Source: Bacillota bacterium (GTDB taxonomy: Bacteria; Bacillota; UBA4882; UBA8346). From it: 64,000 bases of DNA. The notes beneath the pieces were generated by a model, which did no database searches, was not told the origin of the DNA, and saw only the letters and a list, made by a program, of their open reading frames with translations. The position numbers were made by a program, and so were the translations under genes. The stretch covers positions 8,344 to 72,343 of the forward strand of contig JAEVYU010000065.1 in assembly GCA_023392595.1 (NCBI GenBank), written 5' to 3'. How positions within the stretch are numbered: the stretch's first letter is position 1; each line of letters starts with the position of its first letter. Shown here piece by piece: positions 3,244 through 56,452 of this stretch.

Positions 3244-3358
3244 TCCGGTACCTCCTATCCGTAACCCAATAAGTTTAGTATAATGTATCATAAGAGAAGT
3301 GGCTAAAAAAGAACCACCAAAAGAGAATATTTATAGTACCACTTTTCCGGAGGAAGAC

Positions 3359-4753: not shown

Positions 4754-6125
4754 TCTCTACCGGTGAAATCACGCTGAGTGAATAGTGCTGAAAATACTTG
4801 GAAGCTACCCTTTGGATATCGGCGGCGCTCACTTCATCAATCAGCTTCGGGTATTCTTCATCAAAGGAATATCCAAGCCCCGACAGTTCATAACTTCCCA
4901 GAAAATAATTCTGCGCCGAATTGGTCTCGTGCTCCATAAGATACCCGCCTTTAAGGGCGATCTTGGCCATATCCAACTCCCGGAGAGACACGGGTTCCGT
5001 TGTCAACCTTGAAAACTCTTTCAGGATCCCGGCCTTCGCCGCTTGATAATTTCCCGGGGCCGTCGCCATGAACGTATACAGGTATGAAGAATAATTGGCC
5101 GCCTCATAACCGGTGCTGACAGTATAGGCCAAACCTTTTTTGTCCCGCAACTCCACAAACAGTCTGGAGCCCATGTCACTGCCCATGATGTAATGAATCA
5201 CCGACATCACCGGATAATCGGGGTCTCCGATTGGAGGCGCAGGAAAACCTAAAATCATAAAGATGGCCTGGGAATTGCGGGAGCCAATCACATGCCGGTT
5301 TTCTGTCCTTGTTTGAGCGGATACCTCTTCCGGTCCCGATTTTTCCCCTTTTCGCCATCCGCCGAGAGTTTTAGCCAAAGTCGCTTCGATTTTCTGGGGC
5401 TCCACATCTCCGACCACACTAATCACCAGATTGGCCGGTTGATAAATTTTCTTATACCAGACAAGAAGATCGTCCCGGGTCATCCCGGCCACATTTCCGG
5501 CGATTTCATCCGGGGTCATCCCCATGGGGGAGTTGCCATAGAAGAGTTTGAGAAAATTTTGATACGCTTCTCCAACCGGTTGATCCGTTGAAGCTTTTAA
5601 CTCCTGGACCATCAACGCTTTCTCTTTGGCGACCTCTTTCTCGGAAAAGTTAGGATTCATCAGGGTATCCAAAAATATCTCAAAACCGGTGTTAAAACCG
5701 GTCAACGTCGTCTTGAGAGAAACCGTCCCCGAATTATAATTGACAATATTACTGCTGATGGAAGCGCCGAGGGATTCGGTTTGGTATACAATATTCTGGG
5801 CGCTGCGGGTCGTCGTTCCCTTGATTAATACTCTTTGCATCAGTTTGGAGATGCCGCGTTCCCGGGTGGATTCGTAGAGAGCCCCCATTCCGGCAAAGGC
5901 ATTGACAACCACTACTTCATTGGCGGTATTCCGTTTGACCAATAAAGTCAACCCGTTTGCGAATACTTTCTTGATGACAGCCGGTTGTTTTTGAGGCTGG
6001 GTCTCCGCTTGCACAGGTTGATAGAATCCGCCGGCTATCGCCAAGCCCAAGATCAAAACGGGCAATCCCAGAGAAACACCAATTCTTTTGTATGGGTTGC
6101 TATTCTTGTCTCGAAAGTGTATCAT
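4743..6125 (-). CDS. M16-family peptidase, non-catalytic partner subunit (no HxxEH), with signal peptide or anchor
   Basis: Insulinase-like length and layout. The position equivalent to HxxEH reads GISKLMQRVL. N-terminal hydrophobic segment GVSLGLPVLILGLAIAGG; GAGGTGA RBS. Confidence 0.75.
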   Translation of the reverse strand: MIHFRDKNSNPYKRIGVSLGLPVLILGLAIAGGFYQPVQAETQPQKQPAVIKKVFANGLTLLVKRNTANEVVVVNAFAGMGALYESTRERGISKLMQRVLIKGTTTRSAQNIVYQTESLGASISSNIVNYNSGTVSLKTTLTGFNTGFEIFLDTLMNPNFSEKEVAKEKALMVQELKASTDQPVGEAYQNFLKLFYGNSPMGMTPDEIAGNVAGMTRDDLLVWYKKIYQPANLVISVVGDVEPQKIEATLAKTLGGWRKGEKSGPEEVSAQTRTENRHVIGSRNSQAIFMILGFPAPPIGDPDYPVMSVIHYIMGSDMGSRLFVELRDKKGLAYTVSTGYEAANYSSYLYTFMATAPGNYQAAKAGILKEFSRLTTEPVSLRELDMAKIALKGGYLMEHETNSAQNYFLGSYELSGLGYSFDEEYPKLIDEVSAADIQRVASKYFQHYSLSVISPVEIKE

Positions 6126-6129
6126 CGGA

Positions 6130-7506
6130 TTATTTCACCTCCAAAGGTCTAACCGTGGCCAAGACATACGCTTGTGGATTGAGATACTTCCTGGCGACCC
6201 GCTGAACATCTTTGGCGGTTACCTTTTGGATCTCTCCTACGGATGCCGCCGCATTGGACGCATCCCCGCCCACCTGGTATTCGCCTAATATCGAGGCGAT
6301 ATCGGCATTGCTTTCCACCGCATAAGCGATTTGGCTCCGGACAATGGCTTTGGCCCGGGACAACTCTTCTCCGCTGACGCCGTTTTTGATGATTTGGAAA
6401 ATCATTTTTTGAACTTCCGATTCCAAAGCCATGGTCGTTCCCTTTTGCATTTGGGCATAGATCGCGAACATTCCGATGTTTTGGTAGGATTGATATCCGG
6501 CCCCAATTTCATTGGCCAGATCTTTCTTCTCCACCAGTTCCTGATGGAACCGGGAGCCCCCTCCGCCGCCGAGGATGACACCGAGAACCGATAAGGCCGC
6601 CTCATCCGGATCATTCATACCCGGACCCGGAAAGCCGAAATAAAGGTAAGTTTGATCCACTTGCATGGTTGCATCGACTCTGGTAATTTTCACGAGCTTG
6701 GGTATTTTAAATTCGAAAGCTTTCTTCCTGGCTTGAGCTTTACCGTTGTTTTGAAAATCTTTAAACAAACTCTTCGCCTGATCGATAATCTGCCGGGTGT
6801 CTACATCTCCGACCACCACCACTACGATATTGCCGGGAATGTAATATTGACGGTAATAATTCATAAAAGTATCATGGTTAATCTTCGCCAGCGTTTCCGC
6901 ATCTCCTAAAACATCATTGGCATACGGAGTTCCTTTAAACACGGCCTGATAGGCCAGGAGTCCCAATTTCCCCCGGGGGTTATCTTCTTTGAGCCGCTTC
7001 TCTTCCAGGATTACCTGGCGTTCTTTCTCTATTTCCTGCGGGTCAAAAGAAGAATTCATAATGGCGTCGGCCTGCACGTCCAAAGCCAATCCTATCTCTT
7101 TGCTGGGAACCACCACGTAGTAATGGGTGGTGTCAAGGGAAGTCTGGGCATTTTGATAGCCCCCGACCCCCTTGATTTCCTGGGCGATTTCCCCCACTTT
7201 CCGCTTGGCGGTTCCCTTAAATAACATGTGTTCGAAAAAATGAGATAATCCCGCGATTTCCGGGGTCTCATTTTTGGCTCCCGTGCCGACCCAAATATCA
7301 ACCGCCGCTATCGGAGCCGAATGAACTTCCTTGACAATTAACGTTAAACCGTTTTCCATTCTTATGCGGGTAAAGGAACCAAGGGGACCATCTGTCCCGG
7401 GCGCCTCTCCCCGGACGGAAGGGAGTATGACCCATCCGAAAAAAGCAACGAACGCTAAAACCAATCCTAAATAATGACTCTTCTTTCTGCCTTCTACCAT
7501 ATTCAT
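6130..7506 (-). CDS. M16-family zinc peptidase, catalytic subunit (HxxEH present), with signal peptide or anchor
   Basis: Inverted zincin motif in SHFFEHMLFKG. N-terminal hydrophobic segment LGLVLAFVAFFGWVIL. The stop lies 4 nt before the start of the partner gene. Confidence 0.85.
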   Translation of the reverse strand: MNMVEGRKKSHYLGLVLAFVAFFGWVILPSVRGEAPGTDGPLGSFTRIRMENGLTLIVKEVHSAPIAAVDIWVGTGAKNETPEIAGLSHFFEHMLFKGTAKRKVGEIAQEIKGVGGYQNAQTSLDTTHYYVVVPSKEIGLALDVQADAIMNSSFDPQEIEKERQVILEEKRLKEDNPRGKLGLLAYQAVFKGTPYANDVLGDAETLAKINHDTFMNYYRQYYIPGNIVVVVVGDVDTRQIIDQAKSLFKDFQNNGKAQARKKAFEFKIPKLVKITRVDATMQVDQTYLYFGFPGPGMNDPDEAALSVLGVILGGGGGSRFHQELVEKKDLANEIGAGYQSYQNIGMFAIYAQMQKGTTMALESEVQKMIFQIIKNGVSGEELSRAKAIVRSQIAYAVESNADIASILGEYQVGGDASNAAASVGEIQKVTAKDVQRVARKYLNPQAYVLATVRPLEVK

Positions 7507-7759
7507 TCCCCCAAAGAATAAGTGCGGACTTGATCAACACCAATAGTTTCCTTTTCAAGGACGCCTATCCTATTGAAGCTGAATTATCCATCCATAAATA
7601 ACGGATTACTTCTTTGTTAATTTCACATTTCTATCAACAAATCCTGTTAAAATATAATGGAAAGACCCTCCTCTGGCGGTAAAGTTTCTTTCCAGGATTA
7701 TTTTTGCCATAAACAGCGTCAATTTTTTAGATAAAAATCTTTCATAAAGGGGACTTACG

Positions 7760-8323
7760 ATGAATATCGGAATTATCAGCGATACCCACGGTTCAGTAAC
7801 AGCCTGGCGGGAAGCTTATCAAAAGTACTTGCAAAAAACCGATTTAATCATTCATTGCGGAGACGTTTTATATCACGGACCCCGCAATCCTTTGCCGGAA
7901 GGTCATGACCCTAAAAGTCTGGCTGTGGAACTGAATTCGCTAACCAAATCCCTGGTCATTGTTCAAGGAAATTGTGATGCCGAGGTCGATCAGATGGTGT
8001 TGGACTACCCCCTGGAATCGCCTTATGCCCATATCTACACCCCGGAATGGAAGATCCTGGCCCATCATGGTCATCATTGGACCCCGGAATCCACACCCGC
8101 CAAAATAAGCAGTTTTTATGACATCATCATCTCCGGACATACCCATGTTCCCGAAATTCGTAAAATTGGACAAACCCTATATCTCAATCCCGGAAGCCCG
8201 GCTCTGCCGAAAAACGAGGAGAAAACTCCCACCATCGCCTTGATGGATCAAACAAAAATTCAAATCATCGATATCCGGAATGGACAAACCGTTGATGAAT
8301 TCCGATTCAGTCAACATTTCTAA
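7760..8323 (+). CDS. YfcE/MJ0936-family metallophosphoesterase
   Basis: Motifs ISDTHGS, CGDVLYHG, GNCD and SGHTH. Confidence 0.85.
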   Translation: MNIGIISDTHGSVTAWREAYQKYLQKTDLIIHCGDVLYHGPRNPLPEGHDPKSLAVELNSLTKSLVIVQGNCDAEVDQMVLDYPLESPYAHIYTPEWKILAHHGHHWTPESTPAKISSFYDIIISGHTHVPEIRKIGQTLYLNPGSPALPKNEEKTPTIALMDQTKIQIIDIRNGQTVDEFRFSQHF

Positions 8324-8343
8324 CTTAACAATTTTCCAATCTC

Positions 8344-8386
8344 CTCCGTGTCTCTGGAGCCCATAAATTAGCCACAGAGACACGGA
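8344..8386. terminator. Hairpin with a perfect 13-bp stem between convergent genes, likely a bidirectional terminator
   Basis: CTCCGTGTCTCTG (8344-8356) pairs with CAGAGACACGGAG (8374-8386). It lies between the stops at 8323 (+) and 8443 (-). Confidence 0.55.
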
Positions 8387-8442
8387 GACACAGAGAAAAA
8401 ATAATAATTATTCTTTATAGCAGAAAAGTTTAATCTCCAAGA

Positions 8443-10056
8443 CTAAACCATCCCCACCACGACTTGGGCAATATTGACGGCATGTCCGTCAATGCGTAGA
8501 AAACTTTCAATCAGCTCCAAGTGTTCGGCGCTGGTGGCAATGGTCTTTTCATTACCGCCCTGCATCCGGTCAAAATGACTGTAACGGAGTTCTTTTTCCA
8601 GGCGCAAAATTCGGGGATGCTCTTTTATCACCCGCATCGCCGCTTTTTGATCATGATCGGCAAAAGCCTTTAAAGCCAAATCCAACCGTTCACGGACTTG
8701 GGCAAACATATTTTCCAATTCTTCAAGCCCCTCCGGGGAAAAAGCAATGCCTTCGATATTGATTTTACGGATATGTTTACCCATGATAATCATAACATCC
8801 CCGATATGTTCCAAGTCATTGGCAACATATAAAATTTCAATGCTTTGCTGCATCAGCTGATCCGAAATCCGGTTATTGCCTAAACTCGTTAAATACCTGC
8901 TGATCTTGCTATATAATTGATCGATGGCCGGTTCCACTTCATCAATGCGATCAACAGCCCTGTCATCGCCAAATTGAAGGGCGGGAATCGTCCTGACGAG
9001 CATCTCTTCCCGCAAAATCCGGGCCATTTCCAAAGTCTGAAGCCGTGCCTGGTTTACGGCCAATTCAGGAATTTCCAAAAGGGTTGGATCCAGGTAAAGC
9101 GCTTCTCCCAGTGTTATTTTGCGGCTGGGCATCAAACGTTCCATCCAACGGGCTATCGCCCCGGTAAATGGCAAAAAGCCGATCACCATGACCAAAGAAA
9201 AAAAGGTGTGGGCATTGGCGATTTCCCGGCTTAAATTACCGGAGCTGATGATCATCCACCCGGTGAGAATCTTGTAAAACGGTAAAAAAATCGCGGCAGC
9301 GATCAACTTAAAGAAAAAATTGGCGACAGCAGCCCGTTTGGCATCAAATCCGGGAGCGCCGATACTGGAAATGATACCGGTTACCGTTCCACCTAAGTGA
9401 GCGCCTATAACAAAGGGAATGACAGAATAGATTCCGATTAAATCATGAGCTGCCAGGGACATCATTAACGCCAAAAAAGCCGGGCTTGATTGCATAACGG
9501 CGGTAATCACAAAAGCGACTAAAAATCCCAATACCGGATAGGAATTTAATTCAATTAAAATATGGGCAATCAGCGGATAATCTTTCACTGGGGCCATGGC
9601 GGAATTCATAACATGCATGCCGTAAAATAGCAGCCCAAATCCGAGCACCGTTTGCCCAATATTGCGCAGCCTCGAATGTTTGGCGAATATATAGAGGATC
9701 ATCCCGATAAACAATAAAAGCAAAGCGAGGTTGGTCGTTTTAAAAGCTATCAATTGGATGGTAATCGAAGTTCCGATAGCGGATCCCAGAAGAATTCCCA
9801 AAGCCTGGGCCAAGTTCATCAATTCCGCGCTGACAAACCCGACTACCATCGCGGATACCGCATTACTGCCCTGGAGGGCAAAAGTGAGCACCGCACCCAT
9901 GAAAACGCCCATCAAGGGATTGCCGGTTAGAGTACGAATCAATTGTTGAATCCGGTGGGCGGCCACTTTTTGCAGGCCTTCGGAACAAAGTTGGATTCCA
10001 TAAATAAAAAGGCCTAAACCACCGGCTAGACCAAATAATGATGGGAATGGATTCAT
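8443..10056 (-). CDS. Na+/phosphate cotransporter family protein (NptA/YjbB type) with a C-terminal PhoU-like domain
   Basis: Polytopic N-terminal half plus a helical C-terminal PhoU-like repeat region (…VANDLEHIGD…). Confidence 0.85.
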   Translation of the reverse strand: MNPFPSLFGLAGGLGLFIYGIQLCSEGLQKVAAHRIQQLIRTLTGNPLMGVFMGAVLTFALQGSNAVSAMVVGFVSAELMNLAQALGILLGSAIGTSITIQLIAFKTTNLALLLLFIGMILYIFAKHSRLRNIGQTVLGFGLLFYGMHVMNSAMAPVKDYPLIAHILIELNSYPVLGFLVAFVITAVMQSSPAFLALMMSLAAHDLIGIYSVIPFVIGAHLGGTVTGIISSIGAPGFDAKRAAVANFFFKLIAAAIFLPFYKILTGWMIISSGNLSREIANAHTFFSLVMVIGFLPFTGAIARWMERLMPSRKITLGEALYLDPTLLEIPELAVNQARLQTLEMARILREEMLVRTIPALQFGDDRAVDRIDEVEPAIDQLYSKISRYLTSLGNNRISDQLMQQSIEILYVANDLEHIGDVMIIMGKHIRKINIEGIAFSPEGLEELENMFAQVRERLDLALKAFADHDQKAAMRVIKEHPRILRLEKELRYSHFDRMQGGNEKTIATSAEHLELIESFLRIDGHAVNIAQVVVGMV

Positions 10057-10065
10057 CGATACTCC

Positions 10066-10731
10066 TTATTTGCTTTTAAAGGGATGCCGTTCCCCGCAGT
10101 CAATAAAAATGACCATTTCTGCAATATTTACAATATGATCGCCCATCCGTTCCAAATATCTGGCGACCAGCAACAAACTACTGGCTTGATCCACATATTC
10201 AGAGCTTTTTTTCATATAAGCGGTTAACTCCTGAAGGAGTGAAATAAACAAACCATCCACCTGATCATCGTCGCTGTCAAGTTGCCGGGCTAAGGAAGAG
10301 TTGCGCTTGGTAAATGCCTCTAAACTTTTGCTCATCATCTGTTGCACCAGCTCCGCCAGATGCGGAATGTCGACCAACGGTTTAAAAAAAGGCGTTTTAG
10401 GCTGTAGATCCAGGGTTAACTCGGCAATATCGCAGGCGTAATCATTGATTCTTTCAAGCTCACGGCTAATTCTCATGGCAGCCGCTAAAAAACGCAAATC
10501 CCGGTCCATCGGTTGTTGCAAAGAGATTAATTCCAGAGAATCCATTTCCAAAGCCTCTTCAAGGGCGTCGACAGCTTCGTCGCCATCAATCACCGCTTTT
10601 GCCTTTGCAATATCCTGACTTACGAAAGAATCCATGGCTTCTTTTAAAGAGACGCCGACTAATTCACTCATCGTTAAAATTCGCCGATGGATTTCAATCA
10701 AGGCTTTATCATATGCGTTGAGATGTTTCAT
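10066..10731 (-). CDS. phoU: Phosphate signalling/transport regulator PhoU
   Basis: Two PhoU repeats (RISRELERINDYACDIAE and ARYLERMGDHIVNIAE). It sits directly upstream of the Na/Pi transporter gene. Confidence 0.85.
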   Translation of the reverse strand: MKHLNAYDKALIEIHRRILTMSELVGVSLKEAMDSFVSQDIAKAKAVIDGDEAVDALEEALEMDSLELISLQQPMDRDLRFLAAAMRISRELERINDYACDIAELTLDLQPKTPFFKPLVDIPHLAELVQQMMSKSLEAFTKRNSSLARQLDSDDDQVDGLFISLLQELTAYMKKSSEYVDQASSLLLVARYLERMGDHIVNIAEMVIFIDCGERHPFKSK

Positions 10732-27903: not shown

Positions 27904-29580
27904 TTAGGCTGAAATAACCGGCTCACCACTCATTGTGATGGGAGGAATTACTTCAAGTACCGGTTTAAATACGGCAAGCCGGATAACTTCCTCAATTCGC
28001 TCCACAGGAATAACAGTAATCCCCATTTCATCCTCAAATATTTTTTGCCAATTTTCTTTGGGTATTAATACTCTTTTGACACCTGCTTCTCTGGCGGCAT
28101 TAATTTTTGCGACCACTCCACCAATTGGCATCACCCCGCCTCGAATGGACAATTCACCGGTCATGGCAATTTCATTGTCTACGGCTTGACCTGTTATCGC
28201 CGAATAAATTGCGGTTGCTAAAGTAATCCCTGCCGAGGGGCCATCGATGGGTGTACCTCCAGGAAAATTAACATGGATATCGTAGTTTAAAGGATTAATG
28301 TTCATAAATTTACGTAAAACTGTGAGCACATTCTCTACAGAACCCAAAGCCATACTCTTTCGTCGGAGGGTCCTTCCGCCCCCGCCCATTTCTTCCTCAT
28401 CGACTACTCCGGTTGTGGTAATTTTCCCTTTACCGGCTTCAGATACGGGAATGGCGGAGACTTCAACCTGAATCACGGAACCCATATTGGGTCCGTAAAC
28501 CGCCAGCCCATTAACGTATCCCACTTGCGGTTTTGACGGTATTTTAACACTTGGCCGAGGGGAATATTGACTGCTGTGAATAACCCATTCCAAATCCTTT
28601 ACAGAAACCCCTTTACGGTTTTCCGTGATTGCCAAACCCGCTGTAATTTGAATTAAGTTAACGGCATCCCGGCCATTGGTGGCGTATTTGGTGATGATAT
28701 CGATAACACCCGGCTCAAGTTCAAAAGTGATTTTTTGGGCGGCATTCTCAGCTATCCGTTTAATATCACCCGGAGTCAACGGCTGGAAAAAGATTTCAAC
28801 GCAACGGGAACGAATGGCAGGAGGAATATCCTGCGGCATACGCGTCGTCGCTCCCACAAGACGGAAATCAGCCGGTAACCCATTTTGAAAAATATCGTGG
28901 ATGTGACTTGGAATATTCGTATCCTCTGAACTATAGTAGGCACTCTCAAAAAATACTCGCCGGTCTTCCAAAACTTTCAGCAGTTTATTCATTTGAATGG
29001 GATGAAGTTCGCCAATCTCATCAATAAATAAAACGCCACCATGAGCTTTTGTTACTGCGCCGGGCTTTGGCTGAGGAATTCCCGCAATTCCTAAAGGCCC
29101 CGCTCCTTGATAAATTGGATCGTGAACGGAACCCATTAAAGGATCGGCAATACCGCGGTCATCAAACCGGGCCGTGGTGGCATCGATTTCAATAAAACGG
29201 GCATATTCTTTAAACGGCGAATACCCTTGTTTTTTAGCTTCTTCCAGTACTACCCTGGCTGCTGCAGTTTTCCCTACACCAGGTGGACCGTAAAGTATCA
29301 CATGCTGCGGATTAGGACCACATAATGATGCCCGTAAAGCTTTTAAGCCATCATCCTGGCCGATAATTTCCCCAAAATTACTGGGACGGGTTTTTTCGGA
29401 AAGGGGCTCCGTAAGCGAAATGCGTCTCAATCTTTGTAATTTCTCCATTTCTTTACGGGATTCCCTGTCTACGGCAGTTTTATTCCCCTGCTGCGACTTG
29501 AGTAAGTTCCAAAAATATAAACCAATTACAATCGCAAAAAACAGATTAATAAGACCAAGTACATTCCCTAATACCTCCAT
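27904..29580 (-). CDS. lonB: Sporulation protease LonB (membrane-anchored AAA+ Lon-like protease)
   Basis: N-terminal TM, Walker A GPPGVGKT, and a Lon protease domain with PSAGITLATAIYSA. It lies immediately downstream of clpX, as in spore formers. Confidence 0.9.
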   Translation of the reverse strand: MEVLGNVLGLINLFFAIVIGLYFWNLLKSQQGNKTAVDRESRKEMEKLQRLRRISLTEPLSEKTRPSNFGEIIGQDDGLKALRASLCGPNPQHVILYGPPGVGKTAAARVVLEEAKKQGYSPFKEYARFIEIDATTARFDDRGIADPLMGSVHDPIYQGAGPLGIAGIPQPKPGAVTKAHGGVLFIDEIGELHPIQMNKLLKVLEDRRVFFESAYYSSEDTNIPSHIHDIFQNGLPADFRLVGATTRMPQDIPPAIRSRCVEIFFQPLTPGDIKRIAENAAQKITFELEPGVIDIITKYATNGRDAVNLIQITAGLAITENRKGVSVKDLEWVIHSSQYSPRPSVKIPSKPQVGYVNGLAVYGPNMGSVIQVEVSAIPVSEAGKGKITTTGVVDEEEMGGGGRTLRRKSMALGSVENVLTVLRKFMNINPLNYDIHVNFPGGTPIDGPSAGITLATAIYSAITGQAVDNEIAMTGELSIRGGVMPIGGVVAKINAAREAGVKRVLIPKENWQKIFEDEMGITVIPVERIEEVIRLAVFKPVLEVIPPITMSGEPVISA

Positions 29581-33514: not shown

Positions 33515-34633
33515 TTATTGAAATAATCCAGTAACCCATTCCCAAAACCGCTGAAAAATCCCTTTTCGCTGAACAGGGGTTATAGCAACCACCGGACATT
33601 TTTCCAAGACCTTTCCGCCCAGTTCCACTTTAAGCTCACCGACATGTTGGGCTTTTTCAACCGGCGCCTTAATGGACTGAGGTAAACTCAAATTCATTTG
33701 GAGTTTTGATTCCGTTCCTTTCGGGATAATCAGATTAATTGGACTCATAGCAGAAACCGGAACTTGTTGCTGCACTCCTCCGGCAACATTCACCGCTCCT
33801 AACCTCTTCGTAGAAGAAAGGGTATAAAGTTGAAACCGACTGAATCCATAATCCAATAAAGCCGTTGAGTCAACATATTCATTTTTGCTATGTAATACTA
33901 CGACGATCAAGCGATGGTTATTCTTCGTCGCCGACGTAACCAGACAGTGACCGGCCTGGCGGGTATATCCTGTCTTTACTCCATCAGCATACGGATAACG
34001 CCACAACATTTTATTATGGTTATACATCGTCCGATCCCACTTATGTCCGGGCCAACTAATAATTTTTTTCTTGGTATTTACAATTTCATTAAAAATCGGA
34101 TTATGTAAGGCATAACGGGTGATAAGCGCCAAATCGTAAGCTGTAGTATAATGATTTATTTCCGGAAGGCCGTTACAATTAACAAAATGGCTGTCTTTAG
34201 CCCCCAATGCTTTTGCTTTCTCATTCATCCAGGCGGCAAAATTACTTTCCGAGCCGGCCAAATTTTCGGCGACGGTAACGGAGGCGTCATTTCCGGAATT
34301 TAAAAGAATACCATATAATAAATCCTCAAGAGTATGGGCTTCACCGGGAGCAAGCCAAATGGATGACCCATCCGTTTTACTGGCTTTGGTGCTTGAAACC
34401 ATTTCTTGATTCATTTTACCGCGCTCAATTGCTAAAATCGCGGTTAATATTTTGGTGGTACTGGCAGGGGCTAGTTTTTTCGAGGCGTTTTTTTGATATA
34501 AGATTTCACCCGTAGTGTAGTCCATTAAAATTGCTGCCGAGGCGGTTACTTCAACTCCACTAGCGGCAAATACGCAGGTTGTAATGATAATTGGAACCAT
34601 AAATAGTAAAAAATAGAAAAGCCGCTTTTTCAT
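33515..34633 (-). CDS. D-alanyl-D-alanine carboxypeptidase (S11, PBP5/DacB/DacF-like)
   Basis: Signal peptide, SxxK (ASTTK) and SxN (NSGND). Confidence 0.85.
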   Translation of the reverse strand: MKKRLFYFLLFMVPIIITTCVFAASGVEVTASAAILMDYTTGEILYQKNASKKLAPASTTKILTAILAIERGKMNQEMVSSTKASKTDGSSIWLAPGEAHTLEDLLYGILLNSGNDASVTVAENLAGSESNFAAWMNEKAKALGAKDSHFVNCNGLPEINHYTTAYDLALITRYALHNPIFNEIVNTKKKIISWPGHKWDRTMYNHNKMLWRYPYADGVKTGYTRQAGHCLVTSATKNNHRLIVVVLHSKNEYVDSTALLDYGFSRFQLYTLSSTKRLGAVNVAGGVQQQVPVSAMSPINLIIPKGTESKLQMNLSLPQSIKAPVEKAQHVGELKVELGGKVLEKCPVVAITPVQRKGIFQRFWEWVTGLFQ

Positions 34634-34871: not shown

Positions 34872-35309
34872 TTAATGGATTTCTTTTTCTTGATTTTTGG
34901 GACTGATAAATTCATGCAGTTTATCCAACAACTGTGGAGCTGAGTCTAAAATACGATCCACTAATACATTGCTTTCAATCGGTAATAATTTGGTTTGCTC
35001 TTTACCGACAACTAAAAAAGCTACCGGATTAATGGTAATTCCGGCGCCGCTTCCCCCGCCGAATGGAAGCTTCTTACTACTCTCCGTTGTTTCCTGATTC
35101 CGTTCGCGATCTTTATCCTTGGCTTTTAACATATTGGCCTCAAATTCACTGCCGCCGGCTGCAAAACCAAATGTGACTCGCGAAATTGGTACAATAACGC
35201 TACCATCCAGTGTTTCTACCGGATCTCCAAGTATGGTATTGACATCAACCATTTCTTTAATATTCTGCATCGCGGTTTTCATTAAACCTTCAATTGGATG
35301 ATCTTCCAA
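34872..35309 (-). CDS. ytfJ: Sporulation protein YtfJ (GerW family)
   Basis: …VIVPISRVTFGFAAGGSEF… and …FGGGSGAGITINPVAFLVV… are characteristic of YtfJ/GerW. Confidence 0.8.
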   Translation of the reverse strand: MEDHPIEGLMKTAMQNIKEMVDVNTILGDPVETLDGSVIVPISRVTFGFAAGGSEFEANMLKAKDKDRERNQETTESSKKLPFGGGSGAGITINPVAFLVVGKEQTKLLPIESNVLVDRILDSAPQLLDKLHEFISPKNQEKEIH

Positions 35310-35988
35310 ATCCGATACCTCCTTTCATCATGCGATGACGGAAATGCGCTATAAAAGCAGCAATTATAATATAGCCCAGTTTAACGCGAAATATACAGTC
35401 AAAGTTCAAGTCCAATCTCAGGTTTTGGAAATCGGGAATTACTTGAATATCCGGCTTCAAATCAAATTTTATCTTACGATGAAGATAACTTAAAAGACTT
35501 GATTTGCCCCCCCATAAAATTCCATAAATTATCGCTGTGCTCACTGGATTTCCAGTACCGAATCGCGTAATCCAGGTGAATTTGGTAAAATGCCCTCGCT
35601 TTTCCAAATCTTCAACTACAAATAGCCAGCGGTGGTATTGGGCAGGCAAAAAATAAGTGAGTAAAGTCACCCCTAAACCCCTTTCTTGATAGCTCTGAAA
35701 AAATTCCCGCCAGTTGCGGGAATCTCCTTGATAGGAGGTGGTTTTTTTTTGACGGCGGATTTTCCTTAAGAAAAACCAGCGGCCGGAGTTTTTTTGTTGT
35801 ACTTTAACCCCTTTGGCTGTTAATTGGAGTAAACTGATGGCTCTGCGTCTTTTCAACAAACCATGTAAAAAAGACATTTCTAACACTAAGGCATCGTCCC
35901 AAGCTACCTTTTGATAAAAGATCCTGAATTCAACCGGTAAAAAAAAGAATATACAAAAAACACTTAAAAACAAAAAAAGCTGAACCAC
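35290..35988 (-). CDS. DUF2953-like (YtfI-like) membrane protein
   Basis: N-terminal TM. It overlaps and precedes ytfJ, as ytfI does in B. subtilis. Confidence 0.55.
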   Translation of the reverse strand: MVQLFLFLSVFCIFFFLPVEFRIFYQKVAWDDALVLEMSFLHGLLKRRRAISLLQLTAKGVKVQQKNSGRWFFLRKIRRQKKTTSYQGDSRNWREFFQSYQERGLGVTLLTYFLPAQYHRWLFVVEDLEKRGHFTKFTWITRFGTGNPVSTAIIYGILWGGKSSLLSYLHRKIKFDLKPDIQVIPDFQNLRLDLNFDCIFRVKLGYIIIAAFIAHFRHRMMKGGIGFGRSSN

Positions 35989-47488: not shown

Positions 47489-47917
47489 TCAAGTCATCTT
47501 AATACCTTTTTTAAAATCCAAAAAGTTTTGTAGAATAATGGTGGCTGCGACTTGATCGACTTTCCCTTTCCGTTGTTTCCGAGACAAATCAGCCTCAATT
47601 AATAAACGTTGCGCCGAAGCTGTCGATAATCGTTCATCCCAGTATTCGATGGGAATACCCGATAACTTATTTAAGGCCAGACCAAAATTCCGTGCTTTAT
47701 CTGCCATAATTCCTTCCGTGCCATTCATATGTTTGGGTAAACCTAAAACCACACCATCAATCTCGTAGTCTTGAATCACCTGCTGAAGATAGTTTAAGTC
47801 TTGCTTTAAAGAACCCTTGCGGTGCCAAACAGTGAAAGGTTGTGCCGTTAATTCCAGAGGGTCACTGATTGCAAGGCCAATTCGCCGTTCTCCTAAGTCC
47901 AGTCCCAACCAACGCAT
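47489..47917 (-). CDS. ruvX: Putative pre-16S rRNA nuclease / Holliday junction resolvase-like RuvX (YqgF)
   Basis: MRWLGLDLGERRIGLAISD... and ...DERLSTASAQR. Confidence 0.9.
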   Translation of the reverse strand: MRWLGLDLGERRIGLAISDPLELTAQPFTVWHRKGSLKQDLNYLQQVIQDYEIDGVVLGLPKHMNGTEGIMADKARNFGLALNKLSGIPIEYWDERLSTASAQRLLIEADLSRKQRKGKVDQVAATIILQNFLDFKKGIKMT

Positions 47918-47995: not shown

Positions 47996-49531
47996 TTAAT
48001 TTATTTTTGGACCTGCCGGAAGTAAAATCCGAATTTGAAAGCCAAAATTGGGTAAGGTAGTCCGTGAGCCTTCAATTTTAAATTTAGTATCCGCAATCTC
48101 ATTTTGGCGGGCCAGAATATCCTGAGCCTCCATGACAAGTTTTCCCTTAATTAAATTTCTAATTGCCCCTGGATCCAGCAGACCTCTGATTTGCCCCTGC
48201 CCTTCCAATTCTAGCTTTGCATTTTGATCATCATATTGGGTAAGTTTCATGGATACCAAAGCCGCTTTATGATCTTGGGCCTCAAAACGAACCGGAATTT
48301 CCTTTTTAAACTGCCCGCTTAAAAATTTATGTATTCCTACTGCAGTAGGAGCCAAGACCTTCACTTGGTACTCAATAACGGTTTCTACAGAATCACTTTC
48401 GGCGCCAATATCCGGTTTACTCGTTATATGAATGATTTCGGTTTTTATAAGATCTTGTATATAAACATAGTCTTTATTAACCATACTCCGCGCTTGATCG
48501 GCAAATGAAAGCTGCATTTGTTTACCGGCCTCATCTTCGCCTTTTTTTACATCATTCAGATCCACAATCGCCACTTGTTTATCCATGCCATTCCGTGTGG
48601 GGAGCGGGTTCGTTATTTTTAATAGACTATTATATCTTCCTTCAATGCTGGTAATCGATTTAGCCGGCTGATTACCGGCTGTGCCTCTTTGATCGGCGGT
48701 TATAGAAACTTCCGCTTTTCCATAATTCTCTCCAATTACAATTCCCAGTTCTTTTTTGGTGACTTTTTTAGGGATTAATACGTCGCTATCGGTACGGAAA
48801 CGGATTCCGTACTTCCCGTAGAGAATACTTCCTTTAGGAAGTAAAACCGGCTGATTCGAACCATTGATAATCATTACTTTACCAACAGCTGCCGTAACAC
48901 CGACAAACTTTCGTCCGGTGGTCACAGTTTGCGTGGCAACCGTAAAATTCTGTATCAACTCTTCTGCCGGTATATTCCCATGAACAATATCGGCATCCGT
49001 GAAGGCACTTCCTATTTGAACCGCTGATTTAAAAGTCAATGTTTTAATTTTAGGGTATACGGTGACGACTGCCTTGGGTTGTAAAAACCACCATATGGCC
49101 ATGACTAAAGTAAATAGCAACAGGACCATTGCAGGGATCATCCGACTATATTGAGAAGTTTTAAACGATATAGGCTTTCCGTTTGGGGATACGGACCTGG
49201 TGGCGCTTTTAATTTCCTCCCCGGAATCTGCTTCATAGGGTGAAGGAACGGCACTCATTTGGTTATCCCGGCTCCAAACTGTTGAAATTCCCAAACGTTG
49301 CGCTAATGAAATTAACGTTGGTTCAACCCCGTTGATAATGATTTCTTTTTCCTCTTCCTCGGCGTAAAATTTTAGTAACCGCAGGTTGATTTCATTGGTC
49401 AACAAGGAACAATTCTCAGGCACTTCAATCATTATTTCCGGTTCGGAACTGTTAATAATTTCCCTTGCCAGTTGCTCAATTTTATAATCGGGATTCAATG
49501 GGATGGTTTTATGAATCCCCATTTGATTCAT
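47996..49531 (-). CDS. Uncharacterized single-pass membrane protein (511 aa) with a beta-rich ectodomain; weak baseplate-J/gp47-like segment
   Basis: TM MIPAMVLLLFTLVMAIWWFL near residue 140, plus the segment AEVSITADQRGTAGNQPAKSITSIEG. The start overlaps the upstream gene by 23 nt. Confidence 0.7.
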   Translation of the reverse strand: MNQMGIHKTIPLNPDYKIEQLAREIINSSEPEIMIEVPENCSLLTNEINLRLLKFYAEEEEKEIIINGVEPTLISLAQRLGISTVWSRDNQMSAVPSPYEADSGEEIKSATRSVSPNGKPISFKTSQYSRMIPAMVLLLFTLVMAIWWFLQPKAVVTVYPKIKTLTFKSAVQIGSAFTDADIVHGNIPAEELIQNFTVATQTVTTGRKFVGVTAAVGKVMIINGSNQPVLLPKGSILYGKYGIRFRTDSDVLIPKKVTKKELGIVIGENYGKAEVSITADQRGTAGNQPAKSITSIEGRYNSLLKITNPLPTRNGMDKQVAIVDLNDVKKGEDEAGKQMQLSFADQARSMVNKDYVYIQDLIKTEIIHITSKPDIGAESDSVETVIEYQVKVLAPTAVGIHKFLSGQFKKEIPVRFEAQDHKAALVSMKLTQYDDQNAKLELEGQGQIRGLLDPGAIRNLIKGKLVMEAQDILARQNEIADTKFKIEGSRTTLPNFGFQIRILLPAGPKIN

Positions 49532-51773
49532 CTCCTTTATTTACGCGGACAGGCGCATTCCAATCTTCCAAAACCAGCAGCAAAAGCATGGGTAGTCCGA
49601 ACATATACATGGTCGTGACCGTGACGATTCCGGAATCGTTAATTAATAATGCCACGATTGCAGTAAGCGTTAATCCAAAAAAACCTCTGGTTTCATCCGG
49701 ATATTTTTGAAGGAAACGCGATACGAAAAAAGGCGGTTTTTTATATAAAATGGGGATTGCCAGTAAAATCAAAAGTAAAACTTTAGTCCAAAACGTATAG
49801 GCGATTAAACGAAAATTTAAATCTAGTTTTCGCTTAACCAAATCGGCAATGGTGTTGAAGCCTTGACTCCGGACAACATCTAAAAATTGTCCAAAATGAG
49901 TCATATTGATATTATTGAGATAATAATCCCACAATCCTGCCAGTACCAATAGAGAAATTGCGGCGGCAATCAAGCTGACAATGTCTTTCCAATGAATCGG
50001 CCTATCCAACCAAAGGTTTGTGGTAATCCCTAAACCAATAAGGGCGGTAGCGCCGCCCCCGACACTTGAGCCAAAATTGGGATGGGCAAGAAATATAGCT
50101 ATAAAGCAAGTAATCGTCCATAATATTTGTTTCCGACAAACGGTAATCTTCTTTAACTGTGTTGATACCGTTACAATAATGGCTCCTAATAAAAAGCCCA
50201 TATATTCATTGCCGACTCCATAAAAACGGGCGCCTGCAACGGCTGAATAGCCAAAAAACGAACGTAATTCCAAAAAACCATTAAAAAAACCTTCCAGGAG
50301 GATTACTACAATCGTTAATAAGGCAATACCGGATAGGGTTAATAAGGGTTTACCCTTGGACCCACAGCGAACCATAAACAAAATCAACAGGGCCAATCCC
50401 AATGTCCATCCCAAGATGGCAAACCAATTAAGAGGATTGATGGCGGCTTCTATCAAAAAAACAACCGGGATCGTGATTAAATATAAGTAAGCATTTGCTA
50501 TATAATTAAATAAACTATGGTGCCTGGACCAAAAAAATGCGCCCACGACTCCGCCAAGGATTAATCCAATCAATATATAGGCGTAAGTTGTTAAGAGAGG
50601 CCATCGCACATTATAATTTTGAATTAATTGTTGTTGTTCGTCCCGGACTGTCTGCCAATTGCCCGACACCCGTTGCAATATATGCCCGCTAAAATAACGC
50701 GACTTTGGAATATTCAAATAGTGGAGGATGGTAATGGGTAGATCATAACAGGTAATAATTCCTGTTTTTCGAGTGCTGGGAGAATAAAGAAGCCCACTTT
50801 CAAAACCCGGTCCTAAAATAACTACCGGGCTTAGTCGTTGTCCAGCTCCGGCATTCCGTAACGGCGCCTGTGCTGTAAAAAGCAATGTCAAAGTTTGGCG
50901 ATGGTCAATTTCCTCAAAAAATCGTCCCACTAAAGAATCGTAACGGTGTAGTATCTCTCTTCGGTAATTTCCCCATTGAGACTCAGTCAGATAAAGACTA
51001 AAACGTTCCAACCGTTCTAAGTCACCGAGTGTCACGGCTATTACATTCGCTTGCTTACGAAATTCATGCCAAGTATTAAAAACCTGCTCATTATCAGTAC
51101 GATGACCGAATGGGAAAGAAGGATCATCCTGGATGGAGTTTTCCCCGATATTTCCCAAATCGATCTGTCCTTTTTGATCCATTAATAAAAGCGCGCTGCT
51201 ACGACTAATCAAATCGGCATCGGCATTTCCAATGGCGGCCGTTTTGAATAGACTCCGATGCAGTAACTCTCCAAATAACCCAATATTGGGAGTAATATCT
51301 TTGCTATTGAGTTGAATCAATTTAGCCAATCCTATATGGACGATACCCGACGGAGGCGCCTTATACCCCATAAGGGATTGATATAAATCTCCCGCCGGTA
51401 TCTGCCTGAATTTTTCAGAAGCCCCAAACAGCAAGTAATTTTCTTCAGCAGTCTTTACTTGGGTGCCGCTGTTAAAAGTAAAATAAATTTGATCCAAACT
51501 CACCGGTTCCGAAAGCGGAGTCGTCATAATCGCCGTAGAACCATTTTTTACCAAACGATAAAGGTTGGGATATTGGGGTGTAATATCCTCAAGAGTTAAA
51601 CGAGTGATATCTAAAATCAACACTTCCTTGGAATTGGCTGCGCATAATGCAGGCTTGTTTATGGTAAATAATATCACCGAAAGCAAGAAAAACACAAATA
51701 TCCGGCGCAACACGTTTAGCCACCCCTTGTCCAAGATTAAAGCCTGTCCACTTTTTAAATCTTTTGATGTCAA
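49509..51773 (-). CDS. Uncharacterized large membrane protein (up to 754 aa): exported alkaline-phosphatase-fold-like domain plus ~10 TM helices
   Basis: N-terminal signal or anchor, then motif order VLILDITRL / TTPLSEPVSLDQIYFTFNSG / VVILGPGF / CYDLPITILHYLNIP, then a polytopic C-terminal half. The start is uncertain: TTG 51773 has no RBS, while GTG 51713 follows AAGGGG. Confidence 0.7.
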   Translation of the reverse strand: MTSKDLKSGQALILDKGWLNVLRRIFVFFLLSVILFTINKPALCAANSKEVLILDITRLTLEDITPQYPNLYRLVKNGSTAIMTTPLSEPVSLDQIYFTFNSGTQVKTAEENYLLFGASEKFRQIPAGDLYQSLMGYKAPPSGIVHIGLAKLIQLNSKDITPNIGLFGELLHRSLFKTAAIGNADADLISRSSALLLMDQKGQIDLGNIGENSIQDDPSFPFGHRTDNEQVFNTWHEFRKQANVIAVTLGDLERLERFSLYLTESQWGNYRREILHRYDSLVGRFFEEIDHRQTLTLLFTAQAPLRNAGAGQRLSPVVILGPGFESGLLYSPSTRKTGIITCYDLPITILHYLNIPKSRYFSGHILQRVSGNWQTVRDEQQQLIQNYNVRWPLLTTYAYILIGLILGGVVGAFFWSRHHSLFNYIANAYLYLITIPVVFLIEAAINPLNWFAILGWTLGLALLILFMVRCGSKGKPLLTLSGIALLTIVVILLEGFFNGFLELRSFFGYSAVAGARFYGVGNEYMGFLLGAIIVTVSTQLKKITVCRKQILWTITCFIAIFLAHPNFGSSVGGGATALIGLGITTNLWLDRPIHWKDIVSLIAAAISLLVLAGLWDYYLNNINMTHFGQFLDVVRSQGFNTIADLVKRKLDLNFRLIAYTFWTKVLLLILLAIPILYKKPPFFVSRFLQKYPDETRGFFGLTLTAIVALLINDSGIVTVTTMYMFGLPMLLLLVLEDWNAPVRVNKGDESNGDS

Positions 51774-51828
51774 AAAAAAAACGGATAAGTTCCGCTTTAT
51801 CTCATAATACCCAATCCTCCCCTAATTG

Positions 51829-52995
51829 TCAATCAGGGTCTGAAAACTTCAAATCAAGTTTTTCAGAAATCGGTTCCCCGGCAACTGAATTTTGATCATG
51901 AAAACAAATTTCATAAAAACTCCTCATGATAATCCCCACAATGGCTCCCAAAGGCACTGCAAAAATCATCCCGATCAGCCCAAAAACCGCTCCTCCAAAC
52001 ATAATCAAAAAAATGACAGTGGCCGGGTTTATTCGTAAATTACAACTAATAATCCGGGGAGCTAAAAAAAGGGCTTCAATTTGATTAATGACCAGAAATA
52101 GAATGATCACATACAATACAAGCCATGGGGATTTGAGCAAGGCAAAAACAATTAAGGGAATTGCACCGATGATCGGCCCGAAATAAGGGATAACATTAAA
52201 AATACCAACAATAAAGCCCAAAAGAATGGCGGATTCAAATCCTAAAAGGCTCAATCCAATTGCAAATAATGCTCCAATGATCAATGTATCCAGCAATTGG
52301 CTGCGAATATAATATTTAAAAACCGCATCAATCTTCAAAAATGTGTGGGCCCAATGACTACCCATATATTTTTGAATCCATTGCAAAATATTATTTTTAA
52401 TTCGCGGATAATCTCTACTGAAATAATAGGCAATTAGAGGGATCAGTAAATAAAGAAGAGATTGAGAGAAAAACTGGATTACGGTTCCTCCCAATTGAAT
52501 AAAAAAATCGTTAAGAGCAGTGGTTATTCTTTGGGTTAAGTCGCCAGTCATTATCTGCGGATTAAAAGGAAGCTGCCATTTGTTTATCATACCATTTAAT
52601 TTATTTTGAATATCTTGGAGATCCATCAATACTTGGGGCAACTTTTGAATTAATGTCGTCAAATCCCGGATAAGGCGAGGAATCAATGTTTCTAAAACTA
52701 ATATGCCCATCACCAAAAGGGCTCCATAAATTGTAATAATCGCCAAGTCACGGCGGGCTCCCCTTTTTTGTAAAAACTCAACCATCGGGTTCAAAGCGTA
52801 TGCCAGAAAAAAAGCCAAAATAAACGGCAACAAGATAGCCCGTGATAGGTAAATGACTATCAGAATAAAAGAAATGATTACAATTAAAAAGAATATTTTT
52901 TTTAGGGTCAATCGGGTCTCCATGTTCTTTGGCATTCCACGCAAGAGGCAAAATAAAAAAAGGACTGCCCGCTGGTGGTCTACAGAATCATCCAA
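51829..52995 (-). CDS. AI-2E family transporter (UPF0118/PerM-like)
   Basis: Polytopic, with the typical …IPYFGPIIGAIP… segment. The start is uncertain (internal Met at 52923). Confidence 0.8.
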   Translation of the reverse strand: MDDSVDHQRAVLFLFCLLRGMPKNMETRLTLKKIFFLIVIISFILIVIYLSRAILLPFILAFFLAYALNPMVEFLQKRGARRDLAIITIYGALLVMGILVLETLIPRLIRDLTTLIQKLPQVLMDLQDIQNKLNGMINKWQLPFNPQIMTGDLTQRITTALNDFFIQLGGTVIQFFSQSLLYLLIPLIAYYFSRDYPRIKNNILQWIQKYMGSHWAHTFLKIDAVFKYYIRSQLLDTLIIGALFAIGLSLLGFESAILLGFIVGIFNVIPYFGPIIGAIPLIVFALLKSPWLVLYVIILFLVINQIEALFLAPRIISCNLRINPATVIFLIMFGGAVFGLIGMIFAVPLGAIVGIIMRSFYEICFHDQNSVAGEPISEKLDLKFSDPD

Positions 52996-55876: not shown

Positions 55877-56452
55877 TTATTCTATTTGCGCCAGTTGATC
55901 AAGAAAGTCCGTAATTTTTTTTACGGAACCAAAAGAATGATACTGGATAATGAGTTCACCTTTATTCAACATAAGCTGCTCCACACCGGAGAACCGAAGA
56001 ATCTTTTTGAAGTTGACTAAATTCCAGCATTCCTTGGCGATACTTACATTGTTGGTTAAAATAAACCATTGGTTGTCCAGGATGGTATCCTCCGTTAAAA
56101 AACGCTTAAAATCTCCCCATTCTCTTTTTTTCATCCGCAGGGGGTAAAACTCTAACACGGCATCCCCACAACAATCCTGATTATGAAGGTTCATCCTTAT
56201 TTCTAATCCGGAACTCACTTTTAAAGAATCAACCGAGCCTTCCAAAAAACGGATTTTTAAATCCATTCCCCGATAAACCGTTTCAATCTGGGAATAAATA
56301 TTTCCGAAAAAGATACTGTTTTTTTCAGGAACCGTATTTAAATGAGAAGCCAGTTTCGTTAATATATGACGATGAAACAATTTCACCGGCCAATTGGTAA
56401 CAAAAATTGAGATGATAAAAAAAGCGATCAATAATAAACCTAAAATATACAT
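55877..56452 (-). CDS. Hypothetical membrane-anchored protein (191 aa)
   Basis: N-terminal TM MYILGLLLIAFFIISIFV; no recognisable motif. Confidence 0.5.
   Translation of the reverse strand: MYILGLLLIAFFIISIFVTNWPVKLFHRHILTKLASHLNTVPEKNSIFFGNIYSQIETVYRGMDLKIRFLEGSVDSLKVSSGLEIRMNLHNQDCCGDAVLEFYPLRMKKREWGDFKRFLTEDTILDNQWFILTNNVSIAKECWNLVNFKKILRFSGVEQLMLNKGELIIQYHSFGSVKKITDFLDQLAQIE

Follow-up and report, generated by a model that had tools for sequence, protein, structure and literature searches.

A widespread family of membrane proteins with an alkaline phosphatase-fold ectodomain, tentatively placed in an envelope-glycan pathway of Gram-positive bacteria, and a lineage-specific neighbour with a baseplate-type domain

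In a 64-kb stretch of a Bacillota bacterium genome (64,000 nucleotides of contig JAEVYU010000065.1, positions 8,344 to 72,343, assembly GCA_023392595.1; hereafter, the window), two overlapping genes on the minus strand, next to ruvX, encode large membrane proteins that we denote protein A and protein B. Protein A represents a large family of polytopic membrane proteins with an extracytoplasmic domain of the alkaline phosphatase (AP) fold, some of which are fused to glycosyltransferases of family 2 (GT2) and MurJ-type flippases. We tentatively propose, with a confidence that stops short of even, that A is an extracytoplasmic membrane component of a lipid-carrier-dependent envelope-glycan pathway and that B is its lineage-specific accessory partner. 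A role in the cell envelope had been raised in the original prediction for this locus, which was made from the sequence alone, and the genomic context described below fits such a role.

Both genes are found on the minus strand at the coordinates first given for them, with refined starts. The longest open reading frame (ORF) of A reaches a TTG codon at 51773 and would encode 754 amino acids (aa), and the most probable start is the GTG at 51713, with AAGGGG located 9 nucleotides (nt) 5' of it. For B, an alternative ATG at 49531 would yield a 511-aa product, and the most probable start is the second ATG, at 49522, with GGAG 9 nt 5' of this codon. Because both starts move, the overlap between the genes becomes 14 nt (49509-49522) rather than the 23 nt initially reported. 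Public assemblies contain gene calls identical to the resulting 734-aa and 508-aa products. Comparison with five orthologous loci confirmed that the genes are real and that purifying selection acts on both: the ratio of nonsynonymous to synonymous substitutions (dN/dS) ranges over 0.12-0.18 in A and 0.07-0.16 in B, and the dN values of the two genes nearly coincide at each level of divergence. Of the 20 related loci in which A comes before B, 15 have the two genes overlapping or abutting (-47 to +2 nt), and AAAGGAG is located within the 3' end of A. The tight junction and the internal Shine-Dalgarno sequence, both conserved in relatives, bear out the translational coupling suspected from the window itself.

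The AlphaFold2 model of A (pLDDT 87.3, pTM 0.83) confidently reproduces the expected succession of an anchor, an exported domain and a series of hydrophobic helices: it consists of an N-terminal helix, an α/β domain spanning residues ~47-372 (all residue numbers follow the 754-aa version) and eleven more helices that form a membrane module. Hydropathy and charge analysis yields a topology of 12 transmembrane (TM) helices, with both termini inside the cell. As judged from the model, the ectodomain has the core fold of the AP superfamily, in line with the AP/nucleotide pyrophosphatase (NPP)-type fold first suspected from the order of its motifs. Foldseek comparison to the PDB matched it, with a probability of 1.0, to PH0037, LtaP, sulfatases, 3lxq, PbgA/YejM, BcsG and NPPs (E 7e-6 to 1e-3), with phosphopentomutase also among the matches; among the viral structures of BFVD, only AP-fold proteins, namely, alkaline phosphatase and sulfatases, were retrieved. 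Weak Pfam matches in a set of 54 diverse family members point in the same direction (SGSH_C in 23, Sulfatase in 8, Phosphodiest in 6 and Metalloenzyme in 4). The membrane module matched no Pfam or NCBIfam family in the scans of these 54 members, which gave a single O-antigen_lig match at E 0.36 and no GT-C or Wzy_C Pfam match. Searches of PDB sequences with either a full-length or a TM-only profile of A found nothing significant, Foldseek with the A model found no PDB structure other than AP-fold ones at E<0.01, and BFVD contained nothing similar to the module. One family member, P0004, weakly touches DUF6541, below threshold; no literature was found on that domain.

The family is large. A profile search of 1.84 billion representative proteins recovered 6,414 clusters (representatives at 50% identity) at E<=0.001, 3,304 of them at E<=1e-30, most of these clusters being full-length proteins of ~730 aa. 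Relatives of A were detected in at least 511 species in a genome scan, and cultured hosts include Caldanaerobacter, Thermoanaerobacterium, Carboxydothermus, Geosporobacter, Alkaliphilus, Caldicoprobacter and Ammoniphilus. The public names of all members are either 'hypothetical protein' or an automatic 'phosphoglyceromutase'.

Gene fusions connect this family with glycosyltransferases and a flippase. At least five full-length representatives that are less than 50% identical to one another, along with one N-truncated form, have the A-GT2-A architecture; a protein of 2,394 aa, present on four contigs, is organized as MurJ-A-GT2-A, and there is one A-A tandem fusion. The fused GT2 is nearest to the dolichyl-phosphate/polyprenyl-phosphate sugar synthases AglJ and PpgS, with scores below the equivalog cutoffs, and its position between two A modules fits a cytoplasmic GT2 given that both termini of A are inside. 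Neighbouring genes tell a similar story. A glycosyltransferase of family 4 (GT4), which resembles glycolipid-anchor synthases among many GT4 families, is encoded directly adjacent to A in 26-27 of 80 A loci. The order in actinobacterial-type genomes is recN, steA, mctB/steB, MurJ, a glycosyltransferase with A, and pyrG; the MurJ-GT4-A arrangement of Blastococcus and the MurJ gene followed by the fusion in locus L108 are both located between steA-mctB/steB and pyrG. One metagenome-assembled genome (MAG) of Armatimonadota also encodes relatives of A. In Firmicutes, steA-like and steB-like genes lie divergently beside A in L047 (identified by Pfam) and L060; the latter locus also carries a GT2, a phosphoglycosyl transferase (PF00953) and DUF3866 on the same strand, and L075 shares the gene clusters of the steA-like and steB-like genes and also has the GT2 match. 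The string of genes from steA-like to DUF3866 in L060 (Thermoanaerobacterium sp. DL9XJH110) occupies positions 3137-7857 on the minus strand, divergent to the A homolog at 7989-10208. Tandem A paralogs were observed in relatives of the window organism (L003, L005), and an A-x-GT4-A arrangement was observed as well (L058, Thermincola). In Corynebacteriales, SteA and SteB regulate the cell-separation hydrolase RipA, and SteAB have been noted in some Clostridia with no mention of neighbours of the glycosyltransferase, MurJ or A type (PMC12977500). Our search of the SteA/SteB literature for glycosyltransferase or MurJ neighbours found no description of the A family.

Conservation was computed over 197 family members. 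The Thr/Ser nucleophile and the His/Asp metal ligands expected of an AP-fold enzyme, which the original prediction could not discern in A, are unconserved throughout the family: Asp is present at position 55 in 64 and at position 57 in 86 of the 197 sequences, the nucleophile-equivalent position 92 is Thr or Ser in 113, and no His column of the ectodomain exceeds 51%. The family shows no conserved counterparts of the strand-1 metal-binding Asp, the Ser/Thr/formylglycine nucleophile and the Asp/His ligands of the catalytic AP superfamily. A different set of polar residues is near-invariant, namely, N183, D185, R191, D251, R254, S331, T334 and D344 in the ectodomain, and D/E494, the R516-x-Y-G-x-G-N-E motif, D616, H626, R648, K649, N653 and N712-D713-S714-G in the membrane module. 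In the topology derived from hydropathy and charge, all these residues map either to the outer face or to helix ends on the outer side. R516 and N522 are kept in both A modules of all fusions. More generally, each of the two modules of every fusion has kept the outer-face invariant set and S331/T334/D344 but not the canonical AP positions; N183, D185, D251 and R254 are lost in the actinobacterial-type forms of A. Because of this pattern of retention, we place the universally conserved site on the outer face of the membrane module and in one segment of the ectodomain, not in the AP pocket. The earlier description of A as possibly catalytically dead holds for the canonical residues and goes too far in the light of this other invariant set, whose members are mostly outer-face residues of the membrane module. 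The retention of nearly all invariant residues in both tandem copies hints that the A module might work as a dimer.

The non-conservation of the canonical catalytic residues could mean that A is a non-catalytic sensor or regulator of the envelope which, like PbgA/YejM, binds a lipid or polymer and controls a partner enzyme. PbgA/YejM structures (6xlp, 6vat, 5i5d) are indeed among the Foldseek matches, A sits in housekeeping loci, and it adjoins SteA/SteB, the regulators of a cell-wall hydrolase (PMC12977500). However, the outer face carries a cluster of ~14 charged or polar residues that stay invariant from phylum to phylum and in each module of the fusions, a pattern more typical of a catalytic site, and direct fusion to GT2 and a flippase suggests a pathway enzyme, so that we consider a purely regulatory function unlikely.

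A catalytic role of another kind would be that of an LtaS-like polymerase or phosphotransferase that uses a phospholipid donor, such as phosphatidylglycerol, and builds or modifies a phosphodiester-linked polymer on a glycolipid made by GT4, with a non-canonical active site. The AP fold of A is nearest to LtaP (4uop), 3lxq and BcsG, the adjacent GT4 is similar to glycolipid-anchor synthases, and the R-x-Y-G-x-G-N-E motif loosely recalls G-R-x-G-N, the phosphate-binding motif of Lgt. Nevertheless, such an activity appears quite improbable: the A family does not conserve the Thr nucleophile and metal ligands characteristic of LtaS and EptA, the domain order is reversed and the number of TM helices differs, and the similarity of the fused GT2 to polyprenyl-phosphate sugar synthases points to a glycosyl rather than a phosphoglycerol donor.

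The genes around the pair follow the order first described, that is, cysteine desulfurase, mnmA, AI-2E permease, A, B, ruvX and a YrzB-like gene. The accompanying idea that the pair replaces alaS-yrzL has to be rejected: many Clostridia share the order cysteine desulfurase, mnmA, AI-2E permease, alaS, A homolog, an aldo/keto reductase (AKR) with a 4Fe-4S tail, ruvX and YrzB-like, and hence carry A together with alaS. Because the alaS-A-AKR-ruvX order is common in Clostridia, A is an old resident of the alaS-ruvX interval; the clade of the window organism lost alaS from this interval, and A did not replace it. The AKR, with its C-terminal 4Fe-4S ferredoxin domain, was observed between A or B and ruvX in L018 (10090-11049), L002 (11630-12574) and many other loci, often within ~10 nt of its neighbours, and is absent from the window.

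Thermoanaerobacterales have their A homolog elsewhere, between gpr-spoIIP and GT4-lepA. This location could indicate that A and B form a system specific to sporulation, with the cortex, the coat or the spore surface as its site of action. Many hosts of A are endospore-forming Clostridia, genes for a LonB-like protease and a YtfI-like protein (both labelled by eye) are present in the window, the AI-2E permease next to the pair is most similar to YtvI, albeit below the cutoff, and clostridial SteAB have been speculated to act in sporulation (PMC12977500). Against such a function, family members with the same MurJ/glycosyltransferase context are found in actinobacterial-type genomes and in the Armatimonadota MAG, lineages with no endospores, and the pair appears to be co-operonic with the housekeeping genes ruvX and yrzB-like. 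With relatives in the same context in actinobacterial-type genomes, the spore-envelope role once considered for the pair is not indicated, and we assign a low probability to a sporulation-specific system.

For protein B, the AlphaFold2 model (pLDDT 83.6) agrees with the layout first read from its sequence, a cytoplasmic N-terminal domain, one TM helix and a beta-rich ectodomain. The most conserved stretch is the cytoplasmic motif E-I-N-L-R-L-L-K-F-Y-A-E-E-E-x-K (mean top-residue frequency 0.90), in which N, L, R, Y and K are invariant in divergent homologs; this conservation suggests that the N-terminal domain has a conserved intracellular partner. Within the ectodomain, the stretch that had been likened to baseplate-J/gp47 proteins passes the gathering score of Pfam Baseplate_J (PF04865; 26.3 bits against 21.1), with the match confined to profile positions 21-111 of 255, and the homologs L103, L104, P0299 and P0303 pass it as well. 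The same region (residues 210-314, ~105 residues) matches phrog_6, 'baseplate wedge subunit', at E 5e-11. Foldseek aligned B with baseplate proteins of phi812, A-1(L), Mu, diffocin and phiCD508 and with GlxA, at E-values down to 2e-8 and with low TM-scores (0.15-0.25). The GlxA alignment (E ~4e-7) is accompanied by a weak match to PF21110 and by a score of 17.7 bits, against a cutoff of 800, with the NCBIfam GlxA model NF052501, a match to the barrel domain only. A search of PDB sequences with the B profile found nothing significant, and no description of a membrane-anchored baseplate J protein was found in the literature. Protein B contains a true Baseplate_J-type domain and is, by context and architecture, not a baseplate protein.

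The Baseplate_J, phrog_6 and Foldseek matches raise the question of whether B could be a remnant of a prophage, a tailocin or another contractile injection system, a scenario to which we give almost no credence. The original prediction remarked that no other phage gene is nearby, and we found none anywhere in the 64-kb window, the remainder of which consists of housekeeping genes; there were no PADLOC defence-system matches either. No tail genes are present in the window or in the ~25 related B loci, so these loci are not contractile-tail clusters. The sequence match extends over only ~100 residues, the cytoplasmic domain and the TM helix of B have no equivalent in baseplate proteins, and the gene, which is under purifying selection, keeps the same housekeeping position in ~25 species. 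A prophage origin of B is therefore rejected, given the lack of tail genes and the fixed housekeeping locus.

The distribution of B is narrow: the family has ~80 clusters at 90% identity, and the ~25 species-level genomes in which it occurs are without exception MAGs of uncultured Bacillota. In ~20 of the 25 B loci, A is located upstream of B, and in the related loci with flanks, B always lies directly upstream of (AKR-)ruvX-yrzB-like-mltG. In L088 and L092, B is present without A at the locus, at least two of these genomes having A paralogs elsewhere. In L090 and L098, A is cut down to the anchor and the AP ectodomain and still lies beside B; the reduced A of L098 (4829-5941) is 370 aa long and has no membrane module. 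The B-like genes of the divergent L103 and L104 follow alaS, and the distant B-like P0306 is encoded between alaS and sortase-ruvX-mltG (L105:8001-10274; order alaS, P0306, sortase, ruvX, mltG, rpoB, rpoC), whereas P0302 is beside mltG. In L104, we also noticed a gene for an FtsA-like actin-fold ATPase (4737-5999) directly upstream of the B-like gene (6007-7569), between alaS and AKR-ruvX. In P0304, P0305 and P0306, the small N-L-R-L-L cytoplasmic domain is swapped for a different domain of ~250 aa, which by eye gave an FtsA/PilM-like impression, with a weak hhalign probability of 31% and no Pfam match; comparison of this domain to PDB sequences yielded nothing significant. Because the exceptions that lack A keep the ruvX-mltG neighbourhood, B tracks ruvX-mltG more tightly than it tracks A. 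The initial view of A and B as a unit does not hold as an obligate association: A comprises ~6,400 clusters as opposed to ~25 species for B, and in L088, L092 and L103-L106 the B or B-like gene has no A next to it.

These observations bring up another reading, which does not exclude the others, namely, that A and B are functionally unrelated neighbours in the alaS-ruvX-mltG interval, with B tied to ruvX-mltG. It would account for the B or B-like genes that lie, without A, between alaS or AI-2E and ruvX in L088, L092 and L103-L105, for P0302 (L106), which is just upstream of mltG with neither ruvX nor alaS detected, for the presence of A without B in more than 500 species, and for the adjacency of B to (AKR-)ruvX in every locus with flanks. 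What speaks for a functional tie is the overlap or abutment with an internal Shine-Dalgarno sequence in 15 of 20 loci, the almost identical dN of the two genes, and the persistence of an ectodomain-only A beside B (L090, L098). Weighing both, we view mere neighbourhood as rather unlikely.

The pathway that we tentatively favour would build or decorate a glycopolymer of the cell envelope. It would start in the cytoplasm, where either a GT4 or a GT2 akin to polyprenyl-phosphate-sugar synthases would attach a sugar to a membrane lipid phosphate; a MurJ-type flippase would then carry the loaded lipid outward, and A, at the outer leaflet, would bind the phosphate of this lipid and either transfer the glycan to an acceptor in the envelope or process it there. 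The working site of A would be formed by the outer-face Arg, His, Lys, Asp and Asn residues of the 11-helix module, namely, D/E494, R516, N522, D/E616, H626, R648, K649, N653 and N712-D713-S714, together with the S331/T334/D344 segment, and the AP-fold domain would serve as a cap or acceptor-binding domain rather than as a classical metallo-phosphatase. Protein B, a putative type II membrane protein whose synthesis is coupled to that of A and which is equipped with a conserved cytoplasmic docking domain and a domesticated baseplate-wedge beta-domain, would most likely assist this envelope process as a scaffold or adaptor, beside the ruvX-mltG cell-wall locus. Our analysis establishes the two genes, their coupling, folds and topology, the conservation pattern, the fusions and the synteny; the lipid-linked nature of the substrate, catalysis by A and a physical complex of A with B are what we infer.

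Several observations weigh against this scheme. The genomic coupling of a polytopic protein with outer-face residues to a lipid-phosphate-sugar synthase of the GT2 type and a flippase is found in the fusions and neighbourhoods of other genomes, not in the window, where no glycosyltransferase or flippase gene is near the pair, and most A loci sit among housekeeping genes without a link to glycans. No similarity of the membrane module to GT-C proteins, O-antigen ligases or any solved structure was detected, and the catalytic assignment of A therefore follows from context. GT4 enzymes are not normally makers of polyprenyl-phosphate sugars, and for this reason the donor may differ between lineages. 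Furthermore, A and B are conserved together in one clade only, and B-like genes occur without A; the adjacency of the two could reflect a shared preference for the alaS-ruvX interval. A bolder version of the proposal, which we hold to be unlikely as it stands, would have A represent a new class of extracytoplasmic transferases, with an 11-helix membrane fold unrelated to GT-C, Wzy or WaaL and an AP-fold cap, that works with GT2 or GT4 and a MurJ-type flippase, has a link to SteA/SteB and introduces a hitherto unrecognised glycan modification of the Gram-positive wall, B being a domesticated baseplate-wedge transmembrane adaptor.

Table 1 Features of the A-B locus in the window (positions are those of the window; evidence is given with each feature)
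Feature	Position	Strand	Details
Protein A gene	49509..51713	-	734 aa; ORF, GTG start, public gene call, dN/dS
A, N-terminal signal/anchor helix	51660..51710	-	residues 22-38; predicted helix 17-38; mean hydropathy 2.22
A, extracytoplasmic alkaline phosphatase-fold domain (predicted)	50658..51635	-	residues ~47-372; Foldseek against PDB and BFVD
A, 11-helix membrane module	49557..50657	-	residues 373-739; AlphaFold2 helices, topology, hydropathy
A, outer-loop motif R-x-Y-G-x-G-N-E	50205..50228	-	residues 516-523; R516, G519, G521 and N522 invariant in 197 sequences
Shine-Dalgarno sequence of B, AAAGGAG	49532..49538	-	inside the last codons (3' end) of A; kept in related loci
Protein B gene	47996..49522	-	508 aa; ORF, GGAG and ATG start, public gene call, dN/dS
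B, cytoplasmic alpha/beta N-terminal domain	49271..49522	-	~85 residues; AlphaFold2 secondary structure
B, disordered linker	49151-49270	-	low-pLDDT segment 88-127
B, single TM helix	49082..49150	-	residues ~128-150; AlphaFold2 helix 131-149
B, beta-rich ectodomain	47999..49081	-	AlphaFold2
B, baseplate-J-like subdomain	48581-48895	-	residues 213-317; Pfam Baseplate_J, phrog_6, Foldseek
ruvX	47489..47917	-	78 nt downstream of B; no terminator predicted in between
Intergenic region between the AI-2E permease gene and A	51778..51832	-	sigma70-like match 11/12, weak hairpin, T-run; consensus matches only

As for the flanks of the pair, B and ruvX probably share one transcript, and the first strong predicted terminator downstream follows the HU gene. 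Upstream, the sigma70-like match (11/12) overlaps the stop codon of the AI-2E permease gene, and the hairpin and a run of ten T come directly after it, just before A, an arrangement that may represent a terminator, a promoter or a leader. Rfam contained nothing matching the region between 44 and 58 kb of the window. A 191-aa ORF with an N-terminal hydrophobic helix and no Pfam match (55877-56452, minus strand) lies upstream of the cysteine desulfurase gene. Farther away on the minus strand, we labelled by eye a LonB-like protease gene next to clpX-clpP-tig (27904-29580), a DacB/F-like carboxypeptidase gene (33515-34633) and a gene for a YtfI-like membrane protein (35290-35988); these labels suggest that the organism forms endospores.

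The A-B pair itself is lineage-specific, and A opens up a large, unannotated and experimentally approachable family: members are carried by many cultured Clostridia and by some Actinobacteria, yet the family has no curated model and no informative name. The links of A to glycosyltransferases, MurJ-type flippases and SteA/SteB lead to the testable hypothesis of an unrecognised envelope glycosylation step in Gram-positive bacteria, and the context of A suggests a possible function for the clostridial SteAB loci. In B, a baseplate-wedge domain was apparently recruited into a conserved, membrane-anchored protein of a housekeeping locus, which is unusual, and B may mark a broader fast-evolving family that is represented also in lineages resembling candidate phyla radiation bacteria.

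LtaS, EptA, BcsG and PbgA share the AP fold and act on, or bind, envelope lipids or polymers. Protein A resembles LtaS/LtaP, EptA and BcsG (4uop, 3lxq, 6pd0) in having an extracytoplasmic AP domain tethered to a polytopic membrane part in an envelope context. Its order of domains is different, an anchor followed by the AP domain and 11 TM helices as opposed to 3-5 TM helices followed by the AP domain, and, unlike these enzymes, A has no conserved nucleophile or metal ligands and shows the strongest conservation in the membrane module rather than in the AP pocket. PbgA/YejM (LapC) is a structural match in which a degenerate AP-fold ectodomain is likewise carried by a membrane protein; it has the AP fold without classical catalysis, binds lipopolysaccharide and regulates its synthesis. 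PbgA differs from A in that it has five N-terminal TM helices, belongs to Gram-negative bacteria, and has no 11-helix module, no fusions with glycosyltransferases or flippases, and no detectable sequence kinship with A.

Three-component systems for envelope glycosylation include GtrB-GtrA-GtrC, CsbB-GtcA-YfhO, ArnC-ArnE/F-ArnT and PpgS-Rv3779. By the logic of gene association, A is comparable to the third member of such systems, a polytopic protein with outer-face residues that accompanies a lipid-phosphate-sugar synthase of the GT2 type and a flippase. Those third members have the GT-C fold or are of the GtrC type, whereas the A module has no detectable similarity to them; furthermore, the flippases of three-component systems are of the GtrA/GtcA type whereas the one found with A is of the MurJ type, and the usual partner of A in Firmicutes is GT4.

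Protein B shares with the Baseplate_J wedge proteins (P2 gpJ, Mu gp47, T4 gp6, diffocin, phi812) a beta-domain of ~100 residues with G-x-x-G-N, and differs from them in being a type II membrane protein with a cytoplasmic domain that is encoded in a housekeeping locus, and the TM-scores do not support a match of the overall domain arrangement. GlxA of Streptomyces, a radical copper oxidase anchored in the membrane, acts together with the glycan synthase CslA. Protein B lacks the beta-propeller and the copper site of GlxA, so that the match involves only the non-catalytic barrel; like GlxA, however, B is a membrane-anchored protein with this beta-barrel domain, which in GlxA comes with a link to a glycan-synthesis partner.

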